DNA from: an uncultured Verrucomicrobiota bacterium
Lineage (GTDB): Bacteria; Verrucomicrobiota; Kiritimatiellia; CAIQIC01; CAZMXS01
Direction: 5' to 3'
DNA length: 64,000 nucleotides
Assembly: GCA_964570325.1 (NCBI GenBank)
Contig: CAZMXS010000001.1
Span: 96,987-160,986 of the forward strand
Within the stretch, counting starts at the first letter, position 1; each line of letters starts with the position of its first letter. Under the pieces are notes generated by a model that did no database searches, was not told the origin of the DNA, and saw nothing but the letters and a program-made list of their open reading frames with translations. Below, piece after piece: positions 2,072-58,536 of this stretch. The translations under genes and the position numbers were made by a program.

Positions 2072-3183
2072 TCAAGGCCCGGCGCAACCGGCCGTGGCTT
2101 GCCGCGGCGACCGCTGCCGGCCGGCCGCCGGGAGTTTTTCCGCCCAGCCTCGATAATCGGCGCGTACTGGTGATTCAATGGAACGCGCTGGGCGACTCCC
2201 TGATGACGACCCCGCTGCTGCGGCAATTGCGGACGCGCTTTCCGCAGGCGCGGATTGACGTACATTGCAAACCGGCTTCCGTCGCCATTTTCCAGGCGCA
2301 ACCCGGCCTGCGCGAAATCATCGGCCGGAACCCGCGCGCGACGGCCGGCGCGCTATGCCCGGAAGTGGCCGCGCGTCACTACGATGTAATCATTGACTGC
2401 TCCGCCGACCTGCGCAGCGCGTGCCTGACCCGGGCCGGCGCACCCGCTTACAGCGTGGGGCTGGCCCGCCCGGTTCCGGCCGGATGGCGGAGGATCAACA
2501 CCGGTGCGTTCTACGACCGCTGCGTGCCCTACGATGAGGAGACCAACATCATTGACCTGCTCCTCCGGCTCGGTGAACCCTGGCTGGGGGTTACCCGCGA
2601 CCGGCGGCTGTCCTTTGAAATCAGCCCAGCGGCAAGGCAGGCGGCCGACGCCTGGCTGACGCGGGCGGGATTGGCCGGGCTGGCGTATGCCGTGCTGCAT
2701 CCCGGCGGCAAGTGGGCGCCCAAGCGCTGGCCGGAGTCATCCTGGGCCGCGCTGATCCCGCTGCTCATTGAGCGGAAACTGGAACTGGTGGTCGTCGGCC
2801 ACACCGAAGACAAGGGCTTGGTCGAGCGGCTGCGCGATGGCGCCCCGGATCATGTGCGCCCGCTGCTCAATGCGGAACCCGGCCTGCTGGCGGGCGTGAT
2901 CGCGCGCAGTCGCGGGGTGATCTGCAACGATTCGTTTGTCATGCACCTGGCCGGCGCGCTGGCGACGCCGACCGTCGCGCTATTCGGCCCCGTCCGTCCG
3001 GAGCGCGTCGCGGGGCCGCCGGATGACCGGCGCCGCGCCTTGTATGGCGGCCTGTTCTGCAGCCCGTGCGAACTCTACTTCACGGCCGATCGCTGCCGGC
3101 GCGGCCTGAACTTCTGCCTGCGCGCCATTACCCCGGAGTGGGTGGCCCGGGAATATGCATCACTCGATCTTGAAATGAATTGA
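2047..3183 (+). CDS. glycosyltransferase family 9 (ADP-heptose:LPS heptosyltransferase-like)
   Basis: Motifs VLVIQWNALGDSLMTTPLL and GVICNDSFVMHLAGALATPTVALFGP are typical of GT9. Overlaps the upstream GT gene by 25 nt. Confidence 0.75.
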   Translation: MFHKLEQLIKARRNRPWLAAATAAGRPPGVFPPSLDNRRVLVIQWNALGDSLMTTPLLRQLRTRFPQARIDVHCKPASVAIFQAQPGLREIIGRNPRATAGALCPEVAARHYDVIIDCSADLRSACLTRAGAPAYSVGLARPVPAGWRRINTGAFYDRCVPYDEETNIIDLLLRLGEPWLGVTRDRRLSFEISPAARQAADAWLTRAGLAGLAYAVLHPGGKWAPKRWPESSWAALIPLLIERKLELVVVGHTEDKGLVERLRDGAPDHVRPLLNAEPGLLAGVIARSRGVICNDSFVMHLAGALATPTVALFGPVRPERVAGPPDDRRRALYGGLFCSPCELYFTADRCRRGLNFCLRAITPEWVAREYASLDLEMN

Positions 3184-3277
3184 CTTCAATGATCCATTCC
3201 CCTCACTAAAGTTGCATGCAGCGGGAAAGTCAGAAGCGTCTGGCGGATGAAGCGGTCAAACGGCCGGGCGATGCGCC

Positions 3278-4411
3278 TTGAGTTCGATGATCTGCCGGAT
3301 TCTATATCTGCACCACCAACCCAAGCTGGGTGGCGCGGAGCGCAGTTTGCTGAATTTGTTCGCGGGGCTTGACCGAAAACGGTTCGCGCCGATGCTCGCC
3401 GGGCCGGCCGCCGGGCCGTTCCCGGATGCGGCGCGCGCGCTCGGCGTGCCGGTTCGGCCGCTGGAGTTCCAATCGTTGAAAAATCTGCCGGCGCTTTTTT
3501 CCAATGCTTGGAAAATCGCGCGGTTCGCCCGCGCCGCGGGCGTGGGCATCCTCCACGGCCAGACACCACGCACCAACCTGCCGGCCGCGCTGGCGGGCCG
3601 GCTGGCCGGAATCCCGGCCGTCTGGCACGCGCGCGTTCTGCTGGAAGCCGGCCTGTCGGACTGGGATCGCCGTTTTGCCTGCCTGCCGCGCGCGATCATC
3701 TGCAACTCTGACGCGATTCGCGCGCGGTTCGCCGGCATACCCCATTTTGCGGAGAAAACAGTCACCATCCGAAACGGCGTGGACACCGCATGGTTTGCCC
3801 CCGACGCCGTGGATCGCGGCGCGGCCCGGCGGCCGTTCGGCATTTCCGCCAACTGTTTTGTCTATGGCTGTTTCGACCGGCTGGACCCGGTGAAAAATCA
3901 TGAAGTGATTCTGCGCGCTTTCCGGACTGTCCACGCCGCGCATCCGGGAACCTGCTTGCTGATTGTCGGCGCGGCTTTCATCAACCCGGACGGCCGGCGC
4001 GCGGAACTGGAGCATCTGGCCGCGGATCTGGGCCTGGGGACCGACGCGCGCTTCGCCGGTTTTATGGATGACGTGCGCGCGGGGATGGCCGCGTGCGACG
4101 CCATCGTGCAAGCCTCGCGCTCCGAAGGCTGCAGCCGGGCCATCTGCGAAGCGCTGGCAATGGGGCGGCCGGTCATCGCCGCGCGCGTGGGCGGCAACCC
4201 CGAACTGGTCACGGACGGAGAAAACGGCCTGTTGTTCCCGGACAATGACGCGGCGGCGCTGGCGGCGGCGCTGGACCGATTGCTGACCGAACCGGGCCTG
4301 GCGGCGCGCCTGGGAGCGGCGGCGCGGGAACGGGCGCTGAAGGAGCTTTCGCTGGCGGAATATGTGCGCAAAACGGAAGCCGTGTATACGGACTGCCGGG
4401 ACTCGTATTGA
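3278..4411 (+). CDS. glycosyltransferase family 1 (GT4-type)
   Basis: N-terminal LYLHHQPKLGGAERS and a C-terminal GT-B region (RSEGCSRAICEALAMGRPVIAARVGGNPELV) with the typical GT4 E-x7-E-like motif. Confidence 0.75.
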   Translation: MSSMICRILYLHHQPKLGGAERSLLNLFAGLDRKRFAPMLAGPAAGPFPDAARALGVPVRPLEFQSLKNLPALFSNAWKIARFARAAGVGILHGQTPRTNLPAALAGRLAGIPAVWHARVLLEAGLSDWDRRFACLPRAIICNSDAIRARFAGIPHFAEKTVTIRNGVDTAWFAPDAVDRGAARRPFGISANCFVYGCFDRLDPVKNHEVILRAFRTVHAAHPGTCLLIVGAAFINPDGRRAELEHLAADLGLGTDARFAGFMDDVRAGMAACDAIVQASRSEGCSRAICEALAMGRPVIAARVGGNPELVTDGENGLLFPDNDAAALAAALDRLLTEPGLAARLGAAARERALKELSLAEYVRKTEAVYTDCRDSY

Positions 4412-4480
4412 GCGGTAAGGGTTCCCGACAGCGGTAGACACGCTCCGGATATAGTTATGGGGTTGAGGCGCCCCCTCGGA

Positions 4481-5614
4481 TCACCGGCAAGGCGCGGTTG
4501 AATTCCGGACTATCAGTTGGGCGGGCAGAATGGTCATCGTGACGGGCTCGCGGTCCTTGAAATGGCCCCATACCCGGCGGACCGCCAGGCGGCCCATCTG
4601 ATCCAGATCCATATGCACGGTGGTTAGCGGCGGCTGGGAAGCGGCCGCCCACGGTGTGTCATCAAAACCCGTAACCGACACATCGCGCGGCACATTCAAC
4701 GAAGCCTGATCGGCCAGGAATTGAATCGCGCCCACAGCCATTTCATCGCTGAAAGCGCAAATGGCGGTGGGCTTAAAACCGCTCTTGAGCGCAGAGGCGG
4801 TCAAGCGCTGGGCGTTTTCGCGGCGTCCGTCACACACCATCACCGTCACACTATCATGCGGCAAGCCGGCGCGCTCAAGGGCATCATGAACGCCCGCCAG
4901 ACGATCTTGCGTGGAGCGCAAAGCATCGCGGCCCGTGACGACCATGATGTTCCGGTGGCCGAGCCCGAGCAGATGATTCATCACCAAAGCTCCTCCGCCC
5001 CGATTATCCAGCGTGATGGCGCTGGCTGGGATGCCTGGATTCGCGCAATCCGCCAGGATGGCCGGCGGCCCCTGTTCAATGAGCCGGCGCATCAGGGAAG
5101 AATCCGGCATGCCCAGGTAAATCATCGCATCCAGTTGCGCGCGGGCCAGCCGGCTTAATACCCGAACCTCGGGCTCGCCAGCGCGTAACGGGATCATGAC
5201 CAGGCTTCCCTGCAAGCGCGCAAGCTCATCGCGAATACCCTGGATGATTTCCACATGCGAGGGTTCCGCGTCTTTTGATTCCGGCGTAATCAAACCCACG
5301 GTCAAAGGACGCCGCTGCAAACTAAACGTCGTCAGCGGCCGGTTTTCCGCCACATACGTTCCCTGCGCGGGCACGGAATAAATAAGGCCCGCCGCATACA
5401 ATTGAGCCAGACCCCGGCGAACCGTGATCTTGTTCAACGCGTATGTCCGGGCCAGATCGTCCATGGACGGCAGGCGATCTCCAGGTTTCAATTTTCCGCT
5501 TTTGATCTGATCGCGCACAATATCCGCCAACTGGCAATACAAAAACGGGCGCCCGTCTCGGTCACGCTTCAACGGTTGCGGCGGCCGCCCCGGACGTTTG
5601 GCCTTGTTCTTCAT
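4481..5614 (-). CDS. transcriptional regulator, GntR-type winged HTH fused to LacI/periplasmic-binding-protein-type sugar-binding domain
   Basis: N-terminal HTH (LPSMDDLARTYALNKITVRRGLAQL) followed by a LacI-type effector domain (TVGLITP...NIMVVTG...VTGFDD). Divergent from the secreted CBM/GH genes. Confidence 0.8.
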   Translation of the reverse strand: MKNKAKRPGRPPQPLKRDRDGRPFLYCQLADIVRDQIKSGKLKPGDRLPSMDDLARTYALNKITVRRGLAQLYAAGLIYSVPAQGTYVAENRPLTTFSLQRRPLTVGLITPESKDAEPSHVEIIQGIRDELARLQGSLVMIPLRAGEPEVRVLSRLARAQLDAMIYLGMPDSSLMRRLIEQGPPAILADCANPGIPASAITLDNRGGGALVMNHLLGLGHRNIMVVTGRDALRSTQDRLAGVHDALERAGLPHDSVTVMVCDGRRENAQRLTASALKSGFKPTAICAFSDEMAVGAIQFLADQASLNVPRDVSVTGFDDTPWAAASQPPLTTVHMDLDQMGRLAVRRVWGHFKDREPVTMTILPAQLIVRNSTAPCR

Positions 5615-7309: not shown

Positions 7310-9271
7310 GTGCATACTCGACTCTATTTGAGCCTGACGCTCGCCCTGTTGTCCGGCTGGAATGTTGCGGGATTCCCCCTGCACGACCCCGGCGCCGAGG
7401 ATATCATTGATTACGAGAAATACGGCCGATTCGTCACAGACGAAAAAGGAAGCGTGTCATACGTGCTGGTGGATCAGGCGGGCCTTGCGCGAGCCTCCGG
7501 CGAAGGCATTGATCCCAGCCTGAGCATTGCCGACGATCCGGCTTATCAGGCGGCCAAATCCAAGAAACGCTGGCGGCCAGGCGACCACTGGCAGCATGTC
7601 GGGTCATCCGATCCGCAGCTCGATTTCTTTGTCTGGAACGACGCGCCAGAGGAACCGGGAGTGCGTTTGTTGTTCGTCGGGCGCGCACTGGAGAAAGGCG
7701 GCCAATTGCTGCACGCCTTGAAGGCCTATCGCGCCGTGATGGTATTGTATCCCGATTCCGCCACATGGAGCGCCGGCGGCGAGTTCCAATGGAGCGCGGC
7801 GGAGGCGGCCTGGCACAGCATGCAAAATCTCCTGCGGAAACACCCGGAGTTAAATCTTCGGCTGGTGGATGCCGATGTAACCACGCGCGCGGAGTTCGCG
7901 GGTTTGAGAATTCACGTTCGACCGGGCCGGCTTGAATCCATCCAGGGAAAAGCAGATGCGCCGTCGGCAGCCGCCCGAGAGCCGCTTGATCGAAGCCGCA
8001 TCCAGGTCGCGCGCGGAACCGGCGAAGTTCACTTGGTTCAGTATGCCAATGGCGATTGGGAAATGCTTGTCGGCAACGCGCCGTATTTCATCCGCGGTAT
8101 GACCTATATGCCGACCAAGATCGGCGTTGTCCCCTGGGAATGGAACTGGCTATGGGCAGACGAAAACCGGAACGGCCTCGTGGATATGTTCGAGGTTTGG
8201 GCCGATCGTAACGCCAATAACATTCAAGATCCGGACGAGCCGACAACCTCGGACTTTGCGCTGATGCGGGACATGGGCGTCAACACCATCCGCCTCTTCA
8301 TCACCGACCCGGAACTGGTTTCATTCAACCTATTGGCTATGCGACAGATGTACCACGAATTCGGCATCCGTGTTCTGGTCGGCAATTTTCTCGGCGCGTA
8401 CTGCAACGGCTCGGGCGCGCGGTGGGAACAGGGCACGGATTATACCAATCGCAAACAGCGCGACAACATGAAGGCGTCGGTGAGCAACATGGTTATGAAA
8501 CTCAAGGATGAGCCCTGGGTGCTGGCCTGGCTGCTCGGCAATGAGAACAATATGGAAAAGAACGAGGAAGTCAACGCCACCCGGACCAACGCGTCGGAAT
8601 ATCCGGAAACTTACGCGCGGTTCCTGAACGAGGTGTGCCGAATGGTCCACGAGCTGGACCCCCACCACCCGGTGGGTGTCGGCAATTTACTGGTTGGCTT
8701 GGTCGAACATTATGGCCGCCTGGCGCCCGAATTGGATTTCATCGGCATCAATAGCTACATCGGCGGCGAAGGGTTCGGCGCAACTTGGCAGAAGATCAGC
8801 CAGACCATGAACCGGCCAGTAGTCATCACGGAATTTGGATGCGACTCCTATTGGAGCGATCGCGGGCCCGACGAGGACGCGCAGACCGCCTACCTGCTGG
8901 GTAACTGGGAGGATATCGAGTTCAACCGGGCTGGGGGCTCCGGTGTCGGCAACTCGATCGGCGGATTCGTCTTCGAGTGGCTGGACGAATGGTGGAAAGA
9001 CACGCACACGGGATCGGCTGCGGATGTCGCGCGCCATAATTCTCGCGCCGTGTTTCCGATGCCTTTTCCGGATGGTTTCGCGCAGGAGGAATGGTTTGGC
9101 CTGATGGGTCAGGGCGCGGGAACCGCCAGCCCTTTCCAGCGGGTGCCGAAAAAGGCGTACCACGTTTTGCGGGACGTTTGGAACCCCGAACTCATAACCA
9201 GAAAGGAGGCGCCAGCGGCAAATACTGATGTGAACGTCAAAATGGATGCTCAATGTTCGAGCCATTTATAA
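7310..9271 (+). CDS. secreted glycoside hydrolase, clan GH-A TIM barrel (GH5-like)
   Basis: GTG start with RBS TAAGGAG at 7295-7301. Signal peptide LSLTLALLSGWNVAG. Catalytic-type motifs WLLGNENN (acid/base Glu) and VVITEFGCDSYW (nucleophile Glu). Confidence 0.65.
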   Translation: MHTRLYLSLTLALLSGWNVAGFPLHDPGAEDIIDYEKYGRFVTDEKGSVSYVLVDQAGLARASGEGIDPSLSIADDPAYQAAKSKKRWRPGDHWQHVGSSDPQLDFFVWNDAPEEPGVRLLFVGRALEKGGQLLHALKAYRAVMVLYPDSATWSAGGEFQWSAAEAAWHSMQNLLRKHPELNLRLVDADVTTRAEFAGLRIHVRPGRLESIQGKADAPSAAAREPLDRSRIQVARGTGEVHLVQYANGDWEMLVGNAPYFIRGMTYMPTKIGVVPWEWNWLWADENRNGLVDMFEVWADRNANNIQDPDEPTTSDFALMRDMGVNTIRLFITDPELVSFNLLAMRQMYHEFGIRVLVGNFLGAYCNGSGARWEQGTDYTNRKQRDNMKASVSNMVMKLKDEPWVLAWLLGNENNMEKNEEVNATRTNASEYPETYARFLNEVCRMVHELDPHHPVGVGNLLVGLVEHYGRLAPELDFIGINSYIGGEGFGATWQKISQTMNRPVVITEFGCDSYWSDRGPDEDAQTAYLLGNWEDIEFNRAGGSGVGNSIGGFVFEWLDEWWKDTHTGSAADVARHNSRAVFPMPFPDGFAQEEWFGLMGQGAGTASPFQRVPKKAYHVLRDVWNPELITRKEAPAANTDVNVKMDAQCSSHL

Positions 9272-9316
9272 ATGCAGTGCAAGATCAAGCGGTATATTCA
9301 GATAAGGAGCACACAA

Positions 9317-9958
9317 ATGTTCGGAAGTACAGGTTGGATGACTTTGTTGTTAGTTGCGGCGCTGGCCCGTGCGGTTCAATGTGCGGTGGCGGAAGATCCC
9401 GCTTCGCCGGTCGCCCCGGCAAGCGGCCCGGCCGCCCCCAAAGGAGAAACCGTCAAGATTCCATGCGTCGTCTATTCCGATTTCGATGCGGAAGGAGAGA
9501 CGCCTTTCATCGCTTCCGGTTGGATGGGCGCGACCGAGGCTATCGAAATGGACGATGCCTGGCGCGAGAATGTCCAAAGCGGAAGCTCTTGCATCAAGGT
9601 TTCGTTCAACGAGCCCAAGGGTTGGGGTGGCGTGGTCTGGCAAAACCCGGCCAACAATTGGGGGGATGACGAAGGCGGCGTGGACTTGTCCGGCGCCCAG
9701 AAGCTGAGTTTCTGGGCCCGCGGTGAAAACGGAGGCGAAGTGGTGGAATTCAAGATGGGCCTGATCGCCAAGAACAAGCCTTTTTATGACACCGGCAAGG
9801 CCTCGTTAGGCAAAGTCAAGCTGACCAAGGAATGGAAACAATACACGCTGCCGTTGACGGGCAAAGATCTGGGACGGATTGTAACCGGCTTCTGCTGGGT
9901 CGTGGCCGGACGGAAAGATCCGACAACATTCTATCTCGATAATATCGTGTACGAGTAA
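9317..9958 (+). CDS. secreted protein of unknown function (possible carbohydrate-binding domain)
   Basis: RBS AAGGAG 9 nt upstream of ATG 9317. Signal peptide MFGSTGWMTLLLVAALARAVQCA. Beta-rich sequence. The ORF-track start at 9272 is probably too early. Confidence 0.5.
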   Translation: MFGSTGWMTLLLVAALARAVQCAVAEDPASPVAPASGPAAPKGETVKIPCVVYSDFDAEGETPFIASGWMGATEAIEMDDAWRENVQSGSSCIKVSFNEPKGWGGVVWQNPANNWGDDEGGVDLSGAQKLSFWARGENGGEVVEFKMGLIAKNKPFYDTGKASLGKVKLTKEWKQYTLPLTGKDLGRIVTGFCWVVAGRKDPTTFYLDNIVYE

Positions 9959-9977
9959 TCCCAAACAAGCAAAAGTC

Positions 9978-10013
9978 GAACCGGACACCCCCGCCGGACG
10001 GGGTGTCCGGTTC
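9978..10013. terminator. intrinsic terminator hairpin between convergent genes
   Basis: Perfect 14-bp stem GAACCGGACACCCC / GGGGTGTCCGGTTC with an 8-nt loop CGCCGGAC. The minus-strand side is followed by the T-rich tract GACTTTTGCTTGTTT. Confidence 0.6.
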
Positions 10014-10023
10014 GGCATTTGGG

Positions 10024-13000
10024 TCAGGCGTCCCACTCGATCATGAACGTGTTGATCGCTCCAGGGAGCACCTCATGCTGCCATTGGCCGGAAAAGACCT
10101 TCGGGCCCTCCATGCGGCAGGTCAAGTGGCCGGTGAAGTTGGTATAAGATACGGGTTCACCTGTGACCCATGCCGGCTGGCCGTTTCTCACTTCCAAGCC
10201 CAACCAGAACCAGCATCCTCCTTTGAAGAAGGATTCCACAAACATATTCTCCCGCAAACTATGAATGGTGAGCAGATGCCCGCCCAAATCGGCGCAGAAC
10301 CGCTGTGCATCCATCCAGGACAACATGCGGGGAATGTGTAGATAACGATGATTGTTGAATTCGACGGACAAGGCTTTCAATTTAGCCCAATCACGCGCCC
10401 GCAAGGCAAGCAGCACGGAGACCTCGCGAGCCTGCGTCTGGTAGCGAAAATCGCGGCTCCATTTCTCTCTCGCGGCCTGATATTCGCGGGTGGGAATGGA
10501 GTCGCAATCAAAGCGGAAATCTTCCGGCGGATGACGAAGAAACGGGGCCAGGCTGGTGAGCGGATTCCGTCCGCAGGACAAGGCCGCCAGTCGCATCTCT
10601 TTCAGGGGAAGAAGATCCCGGATCCGGTTGCGGTGGCAGGTCAGCACGACCAATGGCCTGCCGCGCAGCGGCTCGAGCGATTCGATTTCGTTTTCACTGC
10701 AATGCAGGACGGTCAGTTTCATGCCGCGCAGGGGGTCGAGACTCCGGATTTGACAGCCGCTGCAGTTGAGCGTGGTCAATGGCATCCCGCGCAGGGGCGC
10801 CAAATCAACCACCGGGTTATTATGAAAGATGAAGGAATTGAGCGGCATACCCGAAAGCGGTTCAAGCGAACAGACCCGGTTGGAAAAACAACAAAGGAAG
10901 TTGAGTTTCATGCCGCGAAGGGCGTCGAGGTCCGCCACCATATTGTGGGCTAAATTAAGCGAATGCAACGGCATGCCGCGCAGCGGTTCCAGATCGTGGA
11001 TCGCACAAGCCTCGCAATGGAGAAACTGAAGCGGCATGCCGCGCAGCGGTTCCAAGCTGGAAATCGGATTACCCGCGCATTTAAGCGTGGCCAGCGGCAT
11101 GCCGCGCAGCGGTTCCAAGTCGGCGATTCGGTTGCCGAAGCAGGCCAACGACCGGATCGGCATGCCGCGCAAGGGCGTCAAATCCGCTATATCCGCCTCG
11201 GATATATCCACGCTTAATCCGTCGTTTTCAAGGCAGACCCGGATGCGCCGGCCGGGCCAGGCGCGCGCGAGTTGGGTCTGCCACTCGGGCAGTTGCCGGC
11301 GAAGCTCTTCGTCGCGGCGCGCCCGATCGAGCCCCCGGATGGCCCGCTCCTTCCGATCCGCACGAAGGGAAGAGCGCAGCGTTTCTGCAAAGAGCGATCG
11401 CGCGGCCTCAATCTGCCCGTTCTGCAATTGGCGCTCGGCCAAATCCAACACATCGGCGCGCCAGGGCGGCGTGCGACGGTAGACTCGGATCCGGCGGAAG
11501 CGATAATCCGCGCCCCAGCCCAAAAATCCCAATGCGCCGCGGTTGTCCCCATGCAGCGGATCCGGGTCGGTCACGCGGATTACTTCACGTCCATTAACCA
11601 CCATTCTCAAACAAGCGCCGATCCGTTCGGCCGTAACCTGGTACGTCTGGCCCGGTGCCAGCGGAACCGCCGCTTCACTCCACAATCGCCGGTCCGCGCG
11701 CGAGACAAGGTTGATCGAATTGTCGAACGCGCCATACTCCATTTTATAGCCGCTGGACGGAATCTCCAGAATATGACCGGCACGGATCGCGCTGATGAAT
11801 ACGCCGAGTCCGTTCACACAACCGCCGACCTGCCGCGCCGTGAACTCGATACGCGCATCGCCGAACACATCCTGTTTCAGTAAGAGCACCTGGGGTTCAC
11901 CATGGCTTAAGCGCAATTCGTCTCCGGTCATTTCCAGATCGCCGCCCGCCGCTACCCAGTCGTCAAGGGCGGCGGCGGTTCCAAAGTCGGAAACGACCAC
12001 ATTTTCCCACGCCAACCCGTTTAGATAATCTTCGATGTCGCGCTGCAATTCGCCCACCGACGAATAACGGTTCGCCGGCTCCGGGGCGAGGGCTTTCATC
12101 GCGATATCAGCCAGCGGCCATGGGGCTTGGCGATCCGGGCAGTGATCCAGCGCGTAGTCATTCTCCAGCCGGGTTGTGAGCGGAGTGATCTGGCCGGAAC
12201 ATACTCGTCGCAGATAGTCCGGCAGTTCCTTCTCCTCCACCGGCAGGCGCAACGTAACCAACAAGTAGAGAATGACCCCGAGCGCGAATATGTCGGCCGG
12301 CGGCCCAACCTGGTCCGGCGGCCCGCCAATCTGTTCCGGCGCCATGAACCCGGGCGTCCCTAACAGAACTCCACTGGAAAGCGCGCCATCGAGATGGCGA
12401 GGGAAACGAGGGGGCGCATCGGCAACCGTCTCGACGCCCGAATACCATTCTTTCGCCAGGCCCCAGTCAGTCACCAATACCTCGCCGAAACTTCCTATAA
12501 GAATGTTGTCCGGTTTCAAATCGCGATGAATGATCCCTTTGGAATGCGCAAACGCGACGCCGTCGCAAACCTTCAGCAGGATATGCAGCAACCGTTCCAG
12601 CGGGTAGGTTTCGATCGTGGGGCGATCGCCGGACCGGAGGCGATTGATCACCGCCGTGAGGGTTTCTCCCTCCACCAGTTTCATGACATAGAAAAGGCGT
12701 TGTTGTGAATCGCAGCCCATTTCATAAAGAGGCATGATATGCGCATGGCCAAGCCGGGCGGTGAGTCGGGCTTCCCGAATAAAACGCGCCAAGGTCTGCT
12801 CCGGGGCGTTTGGGTTATGCGGGAGAAATTTGATCGCAACCTTCCGCTCGCACCGTTTATCCCAAGCTTCAAAAACCGTTCCCATACCGCCCTGCGCGAT
12901 CCGGCGAATAAGCTGAAAGCGCCCGCCCCCGGCCACGGCGATTACCCGCGATTCCCGCTTGCACACCGCCACCTGCCGCGGGGCAACAAAACCGGCCTCC

Positions 13001-13107
13001 CGAACCAAACAGGCCAGTTTCCGACTTGGAGCAGGAGGAATCAACCGTATCGGCCAAGATGGGCACGTGGGTTCAGTGGAGTGAATCTGATCTTTTTTTC
13101 TTTTCAA
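10024..13107 (-). CDS. Ser/Thr protein kinase fused to LamG/DUF1080-like domain, ~12 leucine-rich repeats and a C-terminal C-type lectin-like domain
   Basis: Kinase motifs GGMGTVFEA, VAIK, HRDLKPDNIL, DWGLAKE. About 22-aa repeats with consensus LEPLRGMPL. The C-terminus (WMDAQRFCADLGGHLLTIHS...WFWLGL...WVTGEP...FMIEWDA) follows the CTLD pattern. Confidence 0.85.
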   Translation of the reverse strand: MKRKKDQIHSTEPTCPSWPIRLIPPAPSRKLACLVREAGFVAPRQVAVCKRESRVIAVAGGGRFQLIRRIAQGGMGTVFEAWDKRCERKVAIKFLPHNPNAPEQTLARFIREARLTARLGHAHIMPLYEMGCDSQQRLFYVMKLVEGETLTAVINRLRSGDRPTIETYPLERLLHILLKVCDGVAFAHSKGIIHRDLKPDNILIGSFGEVLVTDWGLAKEWYSGVETVADAPPRFPRHLDGALSSGVLLGTPGFMAPEQIGGPPDQVGPPADIFALGVILYLLVTLRLPVEEKELPDYLRRVCSGQITPLTTRLENDYALDHCPDRQAPWPLADIAMKALAPEPANRYSSVGELQRDIEDYLNGLAWENVVVSDFGTAAALDDWVAAGGDLEMTGDELRLSHGEPQVLLLKQDVFGDARIEFTARQVGGCVNGLGVFISAIRAGHILEIPSSGYKMEYGAFDNSINLVSRADRRLWSEAAVPLAPGQTYQVTAERIGACLRMVVNGREVIRVTDPDPLHGDNRGALGFLGWGADYRFRRIRVYRRTPPWRADVLDLAERQLQNGQIEAARSLFAETLRSSLRADRKERAIRGLDRARRDEELRRQLPEWQTQLARAWPGRRIRVCLENDGLSVDISEADIADLTPLRGMPIRSLACFGNRIADLEPLRGMPLATLKCAGNPISSLEPLRGMPLQFLHCEACAIHDLEPLRGMPLHSLNLAHNMVADLDALRGMKLNFLCCFSNRVCSLEPLSGMPLNSFIFHNNPVVDLAPLRGMPLTTLNCSGCQIRSLDPLRGMKLTVLHCSENEIESLEPLRGRPLVVLTCHRNRIRDLLPLKEMRLAALSCGRNPLTSLAPFLRHPPEDFRFDCDSIPTREYQAAREKWSRDFRYQTQAREVSVLLALRARDWAKLKALSVEFNNHRYLHIPRMLSWMDAQRFCADLGGHLLTIHSLRENMFVESFFKGGCWFWLGLEVRNGQPAWVTGEPVSYTNFTGHLTCRMEGPKVFSGQWQHEVLPGAINTFMIEWDA
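10420..11220 (-). repeat. ~66-bp tandem DNA repeats encoding the LRR units
   Basis: Recurring CGGCATGCCGCGCAGCGGTTCCA-like cores about every 66 nt (for example near 10970, 11035, 11100, 11165). They appear as repeated MPRSGS strings in the off-frame ORF track. Confidence 0.6.
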
Positions 13108-13246
13108 TCACGAATCCCAAGCCAGGCGACGAGTATGGGCGCGGGGCCGAACAGGTCAAGCGATAATGCTGACACTGCAACAAGACGGATCACGCTCTTC
13201 ATCGGCGCTTATCCGGATTCCCCGGCCGGACCAACTCGAGCGGCAA

Positions 13247-14620
13247 TCAGTCCGCCTCCGGCAAGCCTTCCGCCTCAAGCCGCGCGCAATACGGGATCAG
13301 GAGCACCAGGCCGGCCAGCATCCAGAACGGCTCCGCGATACGGACGATGATGAAGCTGTTGGTAAACAGGGCATGGGTCATCATTGCCACAATACCCGCA
13401 AAAAATCCCAAGGCCGTCCCTTTCAGGAAGCCATCCTCGGCCGGGCAGGTTGCATAGGCCTGTAACGTGCCGTTGAGCAGCCGCAGGAAAATCATCAGGA
13501 ACGCCGCCAGGCCGATAATGCCGGTCTCGGCCAGCAGGCGCCAGTATTGCCCGTCAATGAAATACGTCCCGGTCACGCCGTGGCCGAAGAGCGGCTTTTT
13601 CAGCCAGGTTTGCACCGCCTCGTCATAAGAGATCACGCGCGCCGAGGCGCTGGGGTCCAGGTCCACGCCGGCCACCTGCACGTGGTACTGCGTGCCCTTC
13701 TCAAACGTGCCGGTGACCCGCCGTTCGACCTTCTCCGGGATCGCGATCAGGCCGACACCGATGGCGGCCGCCACGCCGGCGGTGGCGATCGCGACGCCGA
13801 CCCGCCGCTTGCTGATCACCATGAAGGTGACCAAGCCGGCCAGCAATGCGATATAAGAACTTCGGGAAAGGGTAAACAGGAACGGCGGGAAGGCGAACAG
13901 CGCAAGCGCCGTCAGCAAGCTGCGAACGCGCAGGCGGGGATCGTAAAGAATGATCCCGCCCAGCACACAAAAGACCAGAACCATGTAGCCGCCGAACGTG
14001 TTGGGCTCGGTATCGAACGGAGCGGTGACCCGGATGCCCTGGACAATTTGCAGATAACCGTAGGCGGCGGCGCACAAGAAGACCGCAATCGTGGTCCCGA
14101 CCAGCCGGCGAATCATCTGCGTGCTGCGCACATGGGCCAGGATCATCAAGAACAAGAAGAAGTATTCAAAGTATTTTGCGTTGTGGAACAGGCCGACATC
14201 CAGTTTCACGGTCCGATCCAGCACCCCCAGGAGCGTCGCGATGACGGAAACGGCCATGTAGATGCCGATCGCGCCCAGCACGGGCGTGCGCACGATCCCG
14301 AAACGGCTGCGCAGATAGGCGGAACGTAAGATCCAGCCCAGGCCCACGGCCACGAGCACGACGTCCTCGAGCCGGATCACCACACCGGCGGCGCCCTCGC
14401 CGGTGCCCTTGCCGGTGGCCAGGCCGGAGCCGATTTCCGGACTGAAGAGCGTCGCGATGATCACGATATAGAGCGCCTCGGTGCCGCGCAGGAAAGCAAC
14501 GCCCAGCATGAAGGCAAAGAACAGAATCCCCGCGAGGAACGGCAGGTCTACACGCGACACGTACTGGCTGAGCGCAACCGCCGCGAGGACCGCCAGCAGG
14601 ATTATGAGAATGAAACGCAT
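13247..14620 (-). CDS. O-antigen ligase/polymerase family membrane protein (Wzy/WaaL-like)
   Basis: About 10-12 predicted TM helices with a larger loop. Adjacent to Wzc/Wza homologs. Confidence 0.55.
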   Translation of the reverse strand: MRFILIILLAVLAAVALSQYVSRVDLPFLAGILFFAFMLGVAFLRGTEALYIVIIATLFSPEIGSGLATGKGTGEGAAGVVIRLEDVVLVAVGLGWILRSAYLRSRFGIVRTPVLGAIGIYMAVSVIATLLGVLDRTVKLDVGLFHNAKYFEYFFLFLMILAHVRSTQMIRRLVGTTIAVFLCAAAYGYLQIVQGIRVTAPFDTEPNTFGGYMVLVFCVLGGIILYDPRLRVRSLLTALALFAFPPFLFTLSRSSYIALLAGLVTFMVISKRRVGVAIATAGVAAAIGVGLIAIPEKVERRVTGTFEKGTQYHVQVAGVDLDPSASARVISYDEAVQTWLKKPLFGHGVTGTYFIDGQYWRLLAETGIIGLAAFLMIFLRLLNGTLQAYATCPAEDGFLKGTALGFFAGIVAMMTHALFTNSFIIVRIAEPFWMLAGLVLLIPYCARLEAEGLPEAD

Positions 14621-14711: not shown

Positions 14712-16757
14712 TCATTTCCGTCCCGGCCGGCCGTAGTAGCCGCGGTAATGCTGCAGGTTGGCGTCTTCCGCCCAGGAGGAACGGATATCGTTGAGCACGA
14801 TCCCCATGACGTTCGCGCCGCTCGTATGCAAGAGGCTGAGCGCGCGGCGCATGGATTCGCGGGCCGCCACGCCGACCTGGTACACAACGATCACGGCATC
14901 CACGACCTTTGAGATGATGACGCTATCCGGCACCGGGAGCAACGGCGGAGCATCAATCAGGATCACGTCGAACTGCTCCTTCCATTCCTTGAGCAGGGCC
15001 TCGAACTCCGGCAGGGAAAGCCATTCGGCCGGCTGGTTCGTGCGCCCGCCGGTGCTGATGAAAAACAGGTTGTCCATGCCCGGGGCGGAGGCCAGCCCCT
15101 CGCCCGCCCGCTCGCCCAGCGCGACATCGCGAAAATCCTTGAGCGCCTCGCGCCAGGTGATTTCGCCGGCGAGGATGTTGGCCAGGCCCCGCTCGCGTTC
15201 GAGGCCGAAGATCCGGTCCATTTTCGGGCGGCGCATGTTGGCGCCAACCAGCAACGTCTTCTTGCCCGCCTGCGCGAAGACCACGGCGGTGTTGGTAATC
15301 GTCGTGCTCTTACCCTCGCCCGGTCCGGCGCTGGTCACCAGGAACGTCTTCGCGCCCGACTTGTTCATCGCCAGCAGCAGATTGGTCCGGAGCATCCGGT
15401 AGGCCTCGGTCGCCGGCGCGCGCGGGCCGAACGGCACGATCAGCTCGGGCAGACGCTGGCCGGCCCGGCGGGAGCGGCGGGCAAACAGCCCGAAGAGCGC
15501 CTTCCAGACCATCGCCATCGTGGTGACGATTCGCGAATAGCGGATCCGGTCCACCCAGCCTTCGGGATGCAGGGGCACATCAATCGCGTCCGGCGAGAAA
15601 TGCGGCACTACGGTCAAAACCGGCAGGCCGAACGCGGCCTCAATATCCATCAGCGTGCGCAGGGAAGTGTCCAGGCTGTCGGCGACGAACGCCAGGACCA
15701 GGCCCAGCATCAAGCCCAGCAGGGCGCCGGCCAGCAGCGTGCGGGTGCGCGATTGCTGAATGGGGCGGCCATCGGCGCCGGGTTCAATCACCTGCACCGT
15801 CTCGCTGCGTTTCTGCGCGGCGATCTTGGCCTCCTCCAGCCGCCGGGTGAAGAACAGCCCCATCTCCTCGGAAATGGCCTTGTAGTTCTCGTAATCCTTG
15901 AGCGATGTCTGGCGCGCGAGCTCCGATTCCATGATCCGGTCAATCCGCCCGCTGATCTCGGCCATCTGGGCCTTGATACTCTTGATTTCCGGATATTCCT
16001 CGGTGTAGTTGCCGGTCGCGCGCAGATCCTGAAGGCGTATTTCGAGGGCAATCAGCCGCTCCTTGAGCAAAGTCATCTCGCCGGCCGAGTCGCCGGTGAT
16101 CATACGCGCGCCATACTTCTTCCAGAGCGCCTCTTCCTGCTCCTTCAATCCGTTCATCAGCGTGTCGCGCGAATTCTTGATGGTGTCGTACACCTCCTGC
16201 GCGTTCTCGGTCAGCGACTGGTCGTGGTGGCGGATGAAAGCGGCCACCACCGCCTGGACGCGCTGGAGGGCGGCCGCCGGCGAATTTCCGACCGCGAAAA
16301 TGTCAATCAGGTCGGTGTGCTCGACCTTGGTGGCGCGAACGGATGCCTGCAGGTTCGCGACCTCGGCGGGCGTCGCCGCCGACGGGTTCCGCAGCGCGGC
16401 CGCGGCATTGCTGATAACCACATAGCTGGTGATCTCGTACAAGTAATTCTCGATCGGGTCGCCGCTGGAGACCAGCAACTCATCAAACAGCCCGGCGACG
16501 GTGACGAGACGCTGGATCTTGATGCGCGTCCGGCTCTCGAAAACCGGCTGTTCCCGGCCCGAGTAGTAATGCGTGAAGCCCAGCGTGATCAGGGTCGTCA
16601 GGATGACGTACCACTTGTGCCGAAGCACCACCCGCAAATAGTCGCTCAACACCAATTCGTCGCGCGCCATGTCAACCTTTCCAAACCGCGCCGGCGTCCG
16701 CCACCGGGCTTGTTCAATCGCTGCGCCCCGACAGCCGGTCGTACACCCAGATGCCAT
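14712..16757 (-). CDS. polysaccharide co-polymerase / BY-tyrosine autokinase (Wzc-like)
   Basis: N-terminal TM helix plus Wzz-like coiled-coil domain, a second TM helix, a C-terminal P-loop GPGEGKST, and a Tyr-rich tail HYRGYYGRPG. Confidence 0.85.
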   Translation of the reverse strand: MASGCTTGCRGAAIEQARWRTPARFGKVDMARDELVLSDYLRVVLRHKWYVILTTLITLGFTHYYSGREQPVFESRTRIKIQRLVTVAGLFDELLVSSGDPIENYLYEITSYVVISNAAAALRNPSAATPAEVANLQASVRATKVEHTDLIDIFAVGNSPAAALQRVQAVVAAFIRHHDQSLTENAQEVYDTIKNSRDTLMNGLKEQEEALWKKYGARMITGDSAGEMTLLKERLIALEIRLQDLRATGNYTEEYPEIKSIKAQMAEISGRIDRIMESELARQTSLKDYENYKAISEEMGLFFTRRLEEAKIAAQKRSETVQVIEPGADGRPIQQSRTRTLLAGALLGLMLGLVLAFVADSLDTSLRTLMDIEAAFGLPVLTVVPHFSPDAIDVPLHPEGWVDRIRYSRIVTTMAMVWKALFGLFARRSRRAGQRLPELIVPFGPRAPATEAYRMLRTNLLLAMNKSGAKTFLVTSAGPGEGKSTTITNTAVVFAQAGKKTLLVGANMRRPKMDRIFGLERERGLANILAGEITWREALKDFRDVALGERAGEGLASAPGMDNLFFISTGGRTNQPAEWLSLPEFEALLKEWKEQFDVILIDAPPLLPVPDSVIISKVVDAVIVVYQVGVAARESMRRALSLLHTSGANVMGIVLNDIRSSWAEDANLQHYRGYYGRPGRK

Positions 16758-17541
16758 CGCGGATTGACACCACTGGAGTCAGCAGCGTCGTGATGAAATC
16801 AGCAAGAGAGTAAACCAACCGGGTATCCACAAACAGGGCATCCCGCGGCTCGAGCAGCAAATTTTTGCTCATGTCCCGGCCGGTAAAAATGTCCATCATC
16901 TGGATCCGCAACACCTGGGGCTGCCCGCTGTCGCCGCGCACAAGGAACACATTGGGCTGCGCGCCACGCGCCAGCCCGCCGGCCAGGGTGACGGCATCGC
17001 GCACGCGCATCCCGCCGGAGAGCGGGAACAGCCCCGGATTGGATACGCGGCCCATAACCAGCACATGCTTGCCGAGTTCGACGGAGGCCTGCCCCGCAAA
17101 GCCCTCAACCCGCGCGCGCTCCAGGTTAATCACCACGCTGGCCTCGCTGAGAATCTTGGACAAGGCGGCCTGTAATTCTGCAGTCAACTGCGGAGGGGTT
17201 TTATTCACGATTGCCCAATTGCCGAGGTTGGGCAGGAAAATCGAGCCTGACTCTGGAATGGTGGTCTTGAATGGATAACCGGACAACTGGCTCATCCGGT
17301 CGCGCAACCAGACTTCAATCGTGATCTTGTCGCCGGCATGAATCGCCAGATCCTGCCCCGGCGTAACCGGGACGCCGCCTTCCGGCGCCGACTCCTTCAG
17401 GATCGTCTGCCCCTGCTGCGCGATCAACTCCGCATCGGCGGCGCGATCGGCGGGCGCAACGGCTTTCGGCTTCGGCGCGGCGCAACCGACCGCCAGGCAC
17501 AGCACCCCCAACCATCCCGCGTATGTCCGAAAGTGCTTCAT
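16714..17541 (-). CDS. polysaccharide export outer-membrane lipoprotein (Wza-like, Poly_export + SLBB)
   Basis: Lipoprotein signal with lipobox LAVGC. PGDKITIEVW-type Poly_export motif. Overlaps the Wzc gene by 44 nt. Confidence 0.75.
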   Translation of the reverse strand: MKHFRTYAGWLGVLCLAVGCAAPKPKAVAPADRAADAELIAQQGQTILKESAPEGGVPVTPGQDLAIHAGDKITIEVWLRDRMSQLSGYPFKTTIPESGSIFLPNLGNWAIVNKTPPQLTAELQAALSKILSEASVVINLERARVEGFAGQASVELGKHVLVMGRVSNPGLFPLSGGMRVRDAVTLAGGLARGAQPNVFLVRGDSGQPQVLRIQMMDIFTGRDMSKNLLLEPRDALFVDTRLVYSLADFITTLLTPVVSIRDGIWVYDRLSGRSD

Positions 17542-17570: not shown

Positions 17571-18716
17571 TCAGGAAACCTTCCGGACCACGGACAGCAC
17601 CACTTCCTCCTTCAAATCAATCAGTTTGGCGATGTCCGGGTGATTGCCCGAACCATCCACCACCACCTTCAGCACCGGCCGCAACGGCAGACCCGCGTTT
17701 TGCTGAACCACCTCGCAAATCGCGTGGTTGTTCAGCTCAACAATCGTACCCACCGGATAGAAACCGCTGAACGAGATGACCCGCTTGAGCAGGTCATAGT
17801 CAAACGCCTTCCGGTACTCCGCGAGGATGTCAAGCAGGTCGCGTGCCTTCTCCCGGCCGGCATCCGCCTTGGATCGGGGGGATTCGAGAAACAGCGAAAC
17901 CGCCAGCAGGTTGGCCACCCCCAGCAACTGGCTCCAGCGCGGGAACTGCTTGCCGGCGATCGCGCCGGGAAACCCCTTGCCGTCCAACCGCTCGTGATGC
18001 TGGGCGATCATCTCAACCACCGGCGCCGGGGCGCCGATCTTGCGGGCGAGCTCGACCCCCTTCATAATATGCTCCGCCAGCGCCGGATTGGCCTCATCGC
18101 GCACCCGGGCCAAGCCATCCTTCATCAACATGAAACCCATATCGTGCAGCAGGCCGGCCGCCCCGAGATCATGCACGGGGAATGGCAACCCTCGCTCGTC
18201 GGCCGCCAAGTCCATCGCCAGCAAAGCCGTATTGATGCTGTGCGCCACCAGGTACTGCAAAGGGTCATCCTCCATTGTACCGGGCCTGATCTCGAAGTTG
18301 ATCACCGCGGCCGAGGTCAGTTGCTGGGCATCGCCGGCAATATGCTTGGCCATCTCCCACAATCCATATTGGTCAGCCGACGGATCGCGGATCTTGTTGA
18401 AAAGGAAGGTCAGCTTGGCCTTCACCTGCTCGGGGGTGATCGCCACCTCGGGCGGCAGCTCAATCCCCAACTCCAACGCCGCCTTGTAAATCGCGGACAT
18501 CCGCTCGCCTTTGTCGGGCGTCACATCCGACACCCAGTTTTTGGGAGCAGCGGCCTCCGGCGTGGACGCAGGGGGCGCCTCAACAGGCGAGGCGACCCCC
18601 GGTGTGGAGCCGGTGGCAGTCGGCGGCGGCACCGAAGCGCCGTTGCGGCCCTTCCCCGATGTTCCCGCATCCTTGATCCAATCGCTCAACCTCATAGGAG
18701 ACGACCTCCCACACAT
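17571..18716 (-). CDS. HD-GYP domain protein (putative c-di-GMP phosphodiesterase)
   Basis: HD motif LLHDMGF and HHERLDGKGFP (matches HHExxDGxGYP). Confidence 0.75.
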   Translation of the reverse strand: MCGRSSPMRLSDWIKDAGTSGKGRNGASVPPPTATGSTPGVASPVEAPPASTPEAAAPKNWVSDVTPDKGERMSAIYKAALELGIELPPEVAITPEQVKAKLTFLFNKIRDPSADQYGLWEMAKHIAGDAQQLTSAAVINFEIRPGTMEDDPLQYLVAHSINTALLAMDLAADERGLPFPVHDLGAAGLLHDMGFMLMKDGLARVRDEANPALAEHIMKGVELARKIGAPAPVVEMIAQHHERLDGKGFPGAIAGKQFPRWSQLLGVANLLAVSLFLESPRSKADAGREKARDLLDILAEYRKAFDYDLLKRVISFSGFYPVGTIVELNNHAICEVVQQNAGLPLRPVLKVVVDGSGNHPDIAKLIDLKEEVVLSVVRKVS

Positions 18717-20451: not shown

Positions 20452-23400
20452 ATGTTTCAGCCTTGGCTCCCGGGAGGGTTTGTTATGCGAACAATGCACT
20501 TTGGAAGCAAGCGGTCACGCGACGGAAGGCAGATCATCAGCGGCATGGGATTATCCATCCTGCTCATTGCCGGTCCGGCTTTTGGCACGGGCTGGATTTC
20601 GCCCAATGCCAATAACAACCCCACCCGTTGGGATAATGAGACTTTGGCGCGCGATAGCAACGTGATCACTTATGCCAGTTGCACACCGAGTAAAACCGGC
20701 TGGGGCCAGGCACTAGAACTTTACTGTGACCCCATCAAGTGCCGGCGCATCCGCGTGAACGCTGATTATCAGCCGGGTGTCAGCTCGGTTCGCCTGGAAA
20801 TCAGGCTGTATCCCAGCGGCACCTGGCAAAACATTTATGAGGGCTCATTCAGCAACCAGGACTGGCAGATCGTCACTTTCAACACCACGAACATCAGCGG
20901 GGCGCGCTGGACCTGGAATTTCACGGACACCATCACTTTCTGGCTCTATGAGCTGGAGTTTTTCGAGGAGGGCGCGACGATCACCGTGCCCGCCTGCGAA
21001 ACGCTGGACGCCAGCTCGGTCGAGGGAACCACGGTCATCCTGCACGGCAACCTGACCGATGATGGCGGCGACCTGTGCCAGTGGCGCATGCAATACGGCC
21101 TGACTTCGAGCTACTCCACCAACACGGAGTGGGTTGGCAACGAGGTGGCGCCAACCCATTTCAGCAAGCTGCTGGTGGATCTGCCGACCAACACCACCTA
21201 CCATTTTCGCGCCCAGGTGCAAAACAGCGCGGGCATCGCCAGCGGCGAGGACAAGGAGTTCACCACCGGCCCGCCGGCCACCGGCTGGATTTCGCCGTCC
21301 GGCTCCAGCAACGACACCGGCAACTGGGAATACCGGGAACGGGCTTACGACGACAACGTGGCAACGGTAGCCCGTTGCCGGCATCCCATGGGCAACCCGG
21401 TCTGGTCGCCCTACATCTACCTGACCCATTCGATTATGATCTGCGACGGAATCGAGTTCTACGCGCGCCGCACCGCGGAGTTCGACATGGGTGAGGTCGG
21501 CGTTCTGCGCAACGGCGCCTGGACCAACGTGTTCAGCGCCAACTTCACCAACCATGTCTGGACCGAGGCCTGGTTCCCGAAAGGCACGGTCACTCAGGCC
21601 CGCGCGCGCTTCCGGCTGACGTCCACCAGCTACGGCCTGGACTACGAACTCAATGAATTCAAGTTCCACCGGCTCGTGGACACGATCATCTCCGGCCGCT
21701 TCAACGGCAATACGCCCGTTACGCTCGTCATCAACGGCGTGACCAACAACACGTTCACGAATTTCACCACCAACGTGTTCAGCTTCGCCGTGTCGGTCGG
21801 CGCCGGCAGCAAGATCTTGATCTTCTACAACGACAACAATCCGGCCACGAACAACGGCGCCGTGGTGACGCTCGCCACCGGCTACAACATGACCGACCTG
21901 GACCTGACGGACGGCGAGCTCATCGTCCGCAACGACTACGGGAGCGGCCTGAGCAACGCGGACCTGATTCAGGCCACCACCGGCGATGCGGATATTCCCT
22001 ACAGCTACAGCGGAACATCCATCATCGTCTCCAATGCCGCCCTCAACGTGCCGGCCGGCCACACCTATGCGCCCGGCACCAACTCGCTCACGCTCTACAG
22101 CAATCTGGTCTACAACGGCACGCTCAACAATACATCCGGCACGGTGACTTTCGCCGGGAACACCCGCATCACCGGCAAGGCCGACGCGTCCTTCTACAAC
22201 GTGACGGTCGCCGGCACGCTTTACGCGCCGACGGGAACGATGTCCGTCGCCGGCAACTGGGTCAATAACGGCTCGTTCTCCAACAACAGCGGCACGGTGA
22301 ACTTCAACGGCAACACCACCATCTCCGGCACGCGGACATCCCTCTTCCACAACGTCACCATCTCCGGCAACCTGGGTGCGCCGGCCGTGATGGGCGTCGC
22401 CGGCAACTGGGTCAATAACGGCGCGTTCTCCAACAACCTCGGCCAGGTAATCTTCAACGGCAACACCACCATCAGCGGGTCCAGCGACACCACCTTCGAC
22501 GACCTGACGATCGCCGCCGGGGCGACGCTGACCGGCCCATCCGGCACGCTGACCGTCAACGGCAACTGGAACAATGCGGGCGGCGCCTATAACCACAATA
22601 ACGGCACGGTCGTCATCGGCGGCACAACCGCCAGCACCAACTCGGGCAACACCACCTTCTACAACCTCGCCTGCACCACCCCGGGCCGGGCGATCTATTT
22701 CACCCCGGGTTCCACCCAGACGGTCGCCGGCACGTTCACGATGGCCGGCGACAGCACCTCCCAGATCCTGCTGCGTTCGACGGTGGCGGGCAGCAAATGG
22801 AAGCTGGACCTGCCCAATACCGACCAGTCCGTGACCTATGTCAATGTGCGCGACTCGGACGCTTTGAACCACACGGTCACCGTCTCCGGTGGCACGGACA
22901 GCGGCAACAACAACGCCAACTGGATTTTCGCCTCGAGCCGCTACTGGGTCGGCGGGACCGGCAATTGGTCGGATACCAACCACTGGTCGCTGACTTCCGG
23001 CGGCCCCGGCGGCGCGTCCGTCCCGACCACCAACCAGCTCGCTATCTTCAACTCCGCCTCGGGCACCGGCACGGCCACGATCAACGTCCCCGCGAACATC
23101 AAGGGCTTGAGCATTCTCGCCGGCACGACGATGACCATCGCCGAAGGGACAAACTTGTTCACAGTCGGCACGGCCGGCTGGGAACAGAAGGGCGGCACCT
23201 ACACCGGCGGCAGCGGCACGCTGACCGTCAACGGCACGTTCCTGCTGACCAACGGCACGTTCACGGCGCCGTCCGGCCTCTTCTCCCTGAGCGGCAACTT
23301 CACCCGCCGGGGCGGCACCTATAACCCCAATGGCGGTACGATCGCGTTCGACGGCTCGACGCTGATCACCCAGACCGTCACCAACAGTTTCGCAAACGTG

Positions 23401-55111: not shown

Positions 55112-58204
<3,093 letters not shown>

Positions 58205-58536
58205 GGCCCCTCCGCGGAGGAATGCCGGAGGCAAACCCAACCCGGGCCGCAACCGGCCAGTCGAACCGCCGAACCGTAATCGTACTCGCATTCATGCTCG
58301 TACCAGCACTCGGGGCATGCCGCTAAAATAGACGGCCGCCGCCCGCGCGAAAAGCCTAATGTGCAATCGGGCGCTTGTCCGCCTGTCCTCGCATTACACA
58401 TGTTCACGCGCGCTCGATCCGGTTTCGGTCTGTAGGTCAGCAACGCGGGATGGGATCTCCGCACTACCGGGATGCAGAATGACCGACTGGCAACGAGGCT
58501 GACGGGCATAAGCAAGCCAGACCTCGGCGAGCGCCT

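Follow-up and report, generated by a model that had tools for sequence, protein, structure and literature searches.

Two groups of bacterial protein kinases come closest to the gene studied here. Cytosolic Ser/Thr kinases that end in a domain folded like a C-type lectin (CLec) have been described in cyanobacteria, where they are the targets of diversity-generating retroelements (DGRs) or paralogs of such targets (PMC7517822). Membrane-spanning receptor kinases of the Planctomycetota–Verrucomicrobiota–Chlamydiota (PVC) bacteria, in turn, carry a periplasmic DUF1080 domain (PMC11032199). We analysed a stretch of 64,000 nucleotides (hereafter the window) from an uncultured Verrucomicrobiota bacterium of the Kiritimatiellia (contig CAZMXS010000001.1, positions 96,987–160,986), in which one gene, at 10024–13107 on the minus strand, encodes a Ser/Thr kinase fused to a DUF1080-type β-sandwich, a leucine-rich repeat (LRR) array and a C-terminal C-type lectin-like domain (CTLD). 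No description of this architecture was found in the literature searched, the coverage of which was incomplete. The protein, the target of this study, belongs to a large, paralog-rich and uncharacterised kinase family, and those members of it that have a name belong for the most part to Kiritimatiellia and other PVC bacteria. We favour, with some reserve, the reading that it is a soluble Hanks kinase gated by a ligand or a partner, with the β-sandwich–LRR–CTLD module as the platform where binding takes place and by which the kinase is gated or targeted.

Results

The open reading frame (ORF) encodes 1027 amino acids and a stop codon, and begins with TTG. This is the longest option, and further in-frame starts occur at codons 22, 34, 46, 48 and 58. 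Since these later starts are possible, and since conservation is poor over the first ~53 residues, which are also predicted to be disordered (residues 1–53 in the AlphaFold2 (AF2) model), the exact start of the ORF is uncertain. Scanned against Pfam, the full protein matched Pkinase (PF00069) at residues 65–349 (135.5 bits, cut-off 31.7), LRR_4 in five stretches (66.1 bits, cut-off 27) and Lectin_C (PF00059) at residues 929–991 (35.8 bits, gathering cut-off 22.6). The match to 3keto-disac_hyd/DUF1080 (PF06439) at residues 380–542 scored 23.5 bits, just below the cut-off of 26.8; scanned alone, the domain reached 28.7 bits, and PF06439 was matched in 9 of 10 family members. The profile built from the domain likewise matched the CBM66 carbohydrate-binding module (CBM) of a Bacillus levanase (PDB 4AZZ, E 6e-4). 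Taken together, the Pfam scores, the separate scan of the PF06439 domain and the CBM66 profile match show that all four domain calls are correct. A preliminary description of this DNA had named the same ORF and the same four domains (kinase, DUF1080-like, LRR and CTLD), and Pfam, profile searches and the predicted fold bear it out.

An AF2 model of the full-length protein, built with 26 homologs, had a mean predicted local distance difference test (pLDDT) score of 83.1. All of the following segments lie on the minus strand. The Hanks-type Ser/Thr kinase domain (12022–12945, residues 55–362), which is supported by Pfam, AF2 and conservation, contains a disordered activation-loop insert at residues 224–246 in the model. 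It is followed by a ConA/LamG-like β-sandwich of the PF06439 (DUF1080, 3-keto-disaccharide hydrolase or CBM66) type (11473–12009, residues 367–545), which is mostly β-strand in the model. A three-helix linker (11260–11451, residues 553–616; AF2 model) leads to the LRR solenoid (10492–11241, residues 623–872), which is seen by Pfam, AF2 and repeat alignment, and a helical neck (10372–10491, residues 873–912; AF2 model) joins the array to the C-terminal α/β CTLD (10027–10365, residues 915–1027). The count of about 12 LRRs given earlier agrees with what we find, namely an N-terminal cap (623–641), 10 regular 21-residue repeats (642–851) and one degenerate repeat (852–872). The repeats follow the consensus DLEPLRGMPLxxLxCxxNxIx, with variable x sites, and AF2 places 13 short β-strands across residues 623–865, with a 21-residue spacing from 674 to 865. 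Internalin models gave weak partial matches to the LRR region, far under their cut-offs.

The kinase domain is of the Hanks (eukaryote-like) Ser/Thr type, with a Pkinase score above cut-off and the catalytic residues present. Its motifs are GGMG (73–76), K93, E112, HRDLKPDN (194–201), DWG (214–216) and APE (256–258). K93, D196, K198, N201 and D214-W215-G216 are invariant (100%) in 119 relatives, and with its catalytic residues intact the target kinase looks active. HRDLKPDN and DWG had been quoted in the preliminary description, as had the C-terminal series WMDAQRFC...GGHL...WLGL...FMIEWDA (931–1027), and all of them are present. The DWG stands in place of the Mg-binding DFG motif (residues 214–216, window 12460–12468) in all 119 family members.

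The C-terminal domain genuinely belongs to the CTLD superfamily. Modelled in isolation, it reached a pLDDT of 94.8, and a Foldseek search of this model against the PDB returned only CTLDs at the top, with TM-scores of 0.77–0.82 (SRCL, CD23, ASGR1, lithostathine and tetranectin). In the PDB, a profile built from 27 C-termini of the family matched single-domain CTLDs of animals with E about 1e-15 (8e-16) and multi-CTLD receptors at 1e-70; the longest alignments (to profile position 104–119 of 122) were to snake-venom CTLDs, which bind proteins. The WIGL-type motif reads WLGL (968–971), with W968 and G970 conserved in 100% of 119 family members, and the last β-strand of the domain (N.FMIEW) is almost invariant in 119 sequences. 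The earlier assignment to the CTLD fold thus holds, as the Lectin_C profile recognises the domain and canonical CTLDs are what its predicted structure resembles. When representative sequences were searched with the CTLD profile, the best 150 places were filled by multi-CTLD proteins with 3–20 matched stretches each, and a word-indexed search with the CTLD profile alone gave 13 short fragments and nothing else.

The conserved cysteine pattern expected of such a domain is largely lost: Cys1 (C938) is the sole canonical cysteine retained, in 91% of 119 family members, and Cys2, Cys3 and Cys4 are not kept across them. The Cys4 position is Ile (62%), the Cys3 position is variable, and the Cys2 position is mostly E, in a region that is gapped or reads GPK. 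C964 and C997 of the target are not conserved either, the family consensus there being S and E. The family CTLD therefore does not have the four cysteines of the C1–C4 and C2–C3 disulfides. Aligned at the Ca2+/sugar site with manually entered reference sequences of MBP-A, DC-SIGN, ASGR1 and CD23, the family CTLD has none of EPN/QPD, the subsequent Glu or the Asn-Asp of WND. At the positions of Ca2+ site 2, the target has T-C-R, a gap and W-Q-H, and its relatives have R/Q-E-K/R and W-x-x. After the 'YxNF' strand the family CTLD is shorter than the lectins, and Cys2 and Cys3 are missing there. Since the EPN/QPD, Glu and WND ligands are missing, classical Ca2+-dependent sugar binding by the CTLD is excluded.

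A hydropathy scan (Kyte–Doolittle, 19-residue windows) found no transmembrane (TM) helix or signal peptide in the target, and the N-terminus has no hydrophobic h-region. The only peak, at 1.95, falls on the buried kinase αF helix; outside it no window scores above 1.5, the highest value being 1.31. By the same scan, no TM-like segment (≥1.8) was found in 117 of 121 full-length relatives; one of the 121 reaches 1.8 at the DWG strand. In the distant relatives P0031–P0033, which are 35–38% identical to the target, a TM helix lies right after the kinase (score 2.45–2.74) and is followed by the same β-sandwich–LRR–CTLD module. These helices were scored by the same scan, which therefore picks up TM helices where they are present, and they serve as an internal positive control. 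P0031–P0033 also have a coiled-coil stretch, besides the TM helix, between the kinase and the DUF1080–LRR–CTLD module.

The target thus has neither the TM helix nor the signal peptide of a transmembrane receptor Ser/Thr kinase, and the target and the bulk of its family are predicted to be soluble. A kinase depends on ATP, and in the absence of both a TM helix and a signal peptide the entire protein is expected to lie in the cytoplasm, with its lectin-like domains predicted to be there alongside the kinase. The missing disulfide cysteines of the CTLD fit a reducing compartment. The same module is predicted to be periplasmic in P0031–P0033 and cytoplasmic in the main family.

A search with the full-length protein returned about 30 proteins of the same architecture, at 41–48% identity. 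With the sensor module (residues 366–1027) as query, there were at least 120 clusters among the matches listed, at 44–53% identity. Full-length proteins make up 113 of the 120 listed clusters (966–1151 aa, most of them 1010–1140), with Pkinase and LRR_4 and, except in one of them, also Lectin_C; the 7 shorter clusters (626–790 aa) come from contigs of 2–7 kb and have no kinase match. Named family members are few, mostly metagenome-assembled genomes (MAGs) of Kiritimatiellae, plus MAGs of Verrucomicrobiota, Lentisphaerota and 'Spartobacteria', and the databases annotate the proteins as 'protein kinase' only. GTDB representative contigs searched with the target protein yielded only unrelated kinases, at 37–41% identity. 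Mean column entropy was similar along the protein, at 1.43 bits for the kinase, 1.47 for the β-sandwich, 1.52 for the LRRs and 1.60 for the CTLD. The sensor module is therefore conserved as a functional unit under purifying selection, and is not hypervariable.

Several contigs carry 2–3 paralogs of the family. One paralog lies in the window itself, at 55112–58291 on the minus strand, with the same kinase, β-sandwich, LRR and CTLD architecture, the same Pfam domains as the target and 48% identity over residues 55–1025. Its start according to JGI is 58204 (1030 aa), 87 nt downstream of the first ATG, and across its 3,093 nt, which is the stretch compared, the gene agrees letter for letter with a JGI metagenome contig of 192 kb. 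At a homolog locus from another assembly (L001, 10001–21536), two family paralogs lie within 12 kb on opposite strands. At another (L012, 4406–11036), two stand in tandem with only an HPr gene between them, followed by STAS/anti-sigma partner-switch genes.

The kinase gene converges with two genes on the opposite, plus strand. One encodes a 653-aa TIM barrel similar to glycoside hydrolase (GH) family GH158 (7310–9271; PDB 9oro, E 1.4e-11; in Pfam only a sub-threshold GH2_C match). The other, separated from the kinase gene by a 65-bp gap, encodes a 228-aa protein with weak similarity to CBM11/CBM4 (9272–9958). The kinase gene does adjoin a CBM/GH locus, as first described. Inside the 65-bp gap, directly 3' of the kinase stop codon, is a terminator-like hairpin (9977–10014, minus strand) with a 15-bp stem of which 11 pairs are G-C, followed by a T-rich tail. 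A weak sigma-70-like promoter match (9/12; 13132–13159, minus strand) lies just upstream of the TTG. Both sites are consensus matches only, and they hint that the kinase has its own transcription unit. Directly upstream, on the same strand, is a polysaccharide-export set comprising a Poly_export/SLBB (Wza-like) gene (16714–17541), a gene for Wzz with a P-loop AAA_31 domain (Wzc/BY-kinase-like; 14712–16757) and a Wzy_C membrane protein gene (13247–14620), the last of which is followed by a 139-bp gap before the kinase gene, in which the promoter-like match lies. GT4, GT9 and GT4 genes and a GntR-PBP regulator are found at 875–5614.

The neighbours differ from locus to locus. Those of the in-window paralog are an HD-domain gene, MazG, RsmB, a coiled-coil protein and a type II secretion system (T2SS)-type ATPase. 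At six homolog loci from other assemblies the neighbours are unrelated and include ABC transporters, ferritin, non-ribosomal peptide synthetase (NRPS)-like proteins, thioredoxin-like proteins, ThiS/ThiF, STAS partner-switch genes and giant surface proteins. At four of the eight loci inspected, a gene for a GH or a CBM is no more than 8–10 kb away, and no neighbouring gene for a carbohydrate-active enzyme (CAZyme) was found at the in-window paralog and three further loci. Across the eight loci there is no conserved operon partner, so that the GH/CBM adjacency carries little functional weight.

Two further features recur near these kinases. A giant 2689-aa protein with Peptidase_C25, Big_5 and TSP3 repeats is encoded at 20452–28521 on the plus strand, about 7 kb from the kinase gene; a 2258-aa Peptidase_C25 protein (L012, 1–4307) stands directly upstream of the tandem paralogs, and giant PA14 or Calx-beta proteins are encoded near other homolog loci. 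The presence of giant proteins near kinase loci may be a coincidence in these genomes. HD_5 or HD-domain genes are found near both kinases of the window, at 17571–18716 (minus strand), 4.4 kb upstream of the target, and at 58856–59710 (plus strand), 0.56 kb from the paralog and divergent from it. As none of the six homolog loci inspected has an HD-domain gene, this proximity is probably due to chance.

Discussion

How such a kinase might work can be outlined from its parts. The C-terminal two-thirds form one conserved module, made up of the PF06439-type β-sandwich, the three-helix linker, the 12-LRR solenoid, the helical neck and a CTLD that has neither disulfides nor a Ca2+ site, and this module most likely serves to bind an intracellular ligand or a partner protein. 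Binding would gate the kinase, either by relieving autoinhibition or by oligomerisation followed by autophosphorylation of the activation loop, as in PknB-type kinases; alternatively, binding by the module might recruit substrates. For the gating step we infer from what is generally known of PknB-type kinases. The closest published idea concerns the cyanobacterial cytosolic kinase–CLec fusions, whose CLec domain has been proposed to be autoinhibitory or substrate-selecting (PMC7517822).

Several points weigh against a cytoplasmic binding platform. The topology comes from the hydropathy scan and not from a dedicated predictor. Both non-LRR sensor domains, the CBM66-like sandwich and the CTLD, have folds that often bind carbohydrate. 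The distant relatives P0031–P0033 are predicted to carry the same module outside the membrane, and in Planctomycetota kinases DUF1080 has been reported solely on the periplasmic side (PMC11032199). Among the genes at the loci inspected, no conserved neighbour points to a pathway.

The preliminary description had taken the protein for a glycan-sensing signalling protein, a proposal that now appears unlikely. In that case an oligosaccharide would be the ligand of the β-sandwich and/or the CTLD, and phosphorylation would be coupled to the availability of polysaccharide. Two lectin-type folds are indeed present, the PF06439 domain with its CBM66 match and the CTLD, yet in the latter EPN/QPD is missing, as are the Glu and the N/D of WND, so that it has no Ca2+/sugar ligands. 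The TM-bearing relatives are predicted to expose the same module to the periplasm, but the target has no TM helix or signal peptide; without a TM helix, a glycan sensor would require a non-canonical site, together with an imported cytoplasmic sugar or a polysaccharide-synthesis intermediate at the cytoplasmic face. The genomic setting speaks in its favour insofar as the gene lies between the GH158-like/CBM-like pair and the Wza/Wzz/Wzy export set, and half of the eight loci have a GH or CBM gene nearby. However, linkage to CAZymes is not conserved in the seven other loci, four of which (the paralog and three more) have no such neighbour, and the kinase gene is convergent with the GH/CBM genes and has terminator-like and promoter-like sites of its own. 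Such genomes are rich in CAZymes, so that adjacency is to be expected by chance. As it stands, the target is an uncharacterised, ordinary-looking member of the many multidomain PVC kinases, with no evidence of a functional link to the adjoining glycan genes.

A role as a cytosolic pattern-recognition or defence sensor kinase strikes us as highly doubtful. Here the LRR–CTLD part would recognise a molecule derived from an invader, upon which the kinase would set off a protective reaction, comparable to LRR-based immune receptors and DGR-diversified CLec sensors. Cytoplasmic CLec sensors with kinase domains have a precedent (PMC10907252), and the predicted cytoplasmic location of an LRR plus CLec-fold sensor would suit this role, as would the expanded family with its clustered paralogs; yet variability in the sensor module does not exceed that in the kinase, and the target has no effector domain. 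In PADLOC the kinase domain resembles the PD-T4-6 and mad6 defence kinases, but the matches are confined to the generic kinase domain, and there are no defence-island neighbours at the loci inspected. Membership of a known defence system (PD-T4-6, MADS mad6 or BREX PglW) was rejected, as PADLOC and NCBIfam match only residues ~55–370, with the NCBIfam scores far below cut-offs; none of the partner genes of PD-T4-6, MADS or BREX occurs in the neighbourhood of the target. Diversification does not help the case, as the window contains no template repeat and the C-terminus of the paralog is not hypervariable across four metagenome assemblies. That the C-terminus is itself the variable region of a DGR has a probability close to nil, and for a cis-acting element this is effectively refuted. 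The kinase plus C-terminal CLec-fold layout resembles that of cyanobacterial DGR targets (PMC7517822), but the domain is of the Lectin_C type, with no FGE-sulfatase match reported at E ≤ 1. Its N.FMIEW strand hardly varies, and the paralog is essentially identical in the four assemblies. No template-repeat-like second copy of the 3' 477 nt (10024–10500) was found in the window, where a reverse transcriptase was not explicitly searched for.

Returning to the soluble, ligand- or partner-gated kinase, one can picture its origin in a way that we hold to be quite unlikely. The family might be cytosolic LRR–CTLD 'receptor kinases' whose ancestors were periplasm-facing receptor kinases that lost the TM helix, followed by expansion to many paralogs per genome, each with a different intracellular ligand; it would then be a prokaryotic counterpart of the intracellular pattern-recognition receptors of eukaryotes, made with a canonical Lectin_C CTLD that functions with neither disulfides nor Ca2+. 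CTLD and DUF1080 domains are usually extracytoplasmic. If the cytoplasmic location is true, a canonical Lectin_C CTLD and a DUF1080 domain work in the interior of bacteria with neither disulfides nor a Ca2+ site, and wider roles for these folds would have to be considered in genome annotation. Kiritimatiellia are polysaccharide degraders. The ligands and substrates of the family could show how Ser/Thr signalling is wired in these poorly studied bacteria, and the significance would be greater should the cytoplasmic LRR–CTLD module turn out to be a ligand-recognition system that has been diversified.

In plants, LRR receptor-like kinases and C-type lectin receptor kinases likewise unite a Ser/Thr kinase and a sensor of the LRR or lectin type on a single chain. 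Unlike these, the target has the kinase first, no TM helix and 21-residue LRRs of the internalin/SDS22-like kind, and nothing indicates common descent of the two fusions. With animal CTLDs (SRCL, CD23, ASGR1, MBP-A and DC-SIGN) the family CTLD shares the WIGL motif, Cys1 and the core aromatics, whereas it differs from them in having no C1–C4 and C2–C3 disulfides, a shorter long-loop region, no EPN/QPD, Glu or WND and a predicted intracellular location. The membrane-spanning PVC receptor kinases with periplasmic DUF1080 (PMC11032199) have the same kinase type as the target and a DUF1080-like domain. P0031–P0033 share its whole DUF1080–LRR–CTLD module, at the 35–38% identity noted above. In both, a TM helix lies between kinase and sensor, in contrast to the target and 117 of the 121 family members. 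In the cyanobacterial DGR targets the CLec domain is of the FGE-sulfatase/DGR type. The cyanobacterial kinase–CLec proteins (PMC7517822) resemble the target in their N-terminal Hanks kinase, their C-terminal CLec fold, their mostly predicted cytosolic location and their multiple paralogs per genome. Their CLec domain bears a DGR variable region, whereas the CTLD of the target is a canonical Lectin_C domain (PF00059) with no sign of a DGR, and the target has a PF06439 β-sandwich and a 12-LRR solenoid between kinase and CTLD. What is new with respect to the known multidomain PVC kinases and kinase–CLec fusions is a Lectin_C CTLD free of disulfides and of a Ca2+ site, joined to the kinase through DUF1080 and LRR domains and apparently cytoplasmic.

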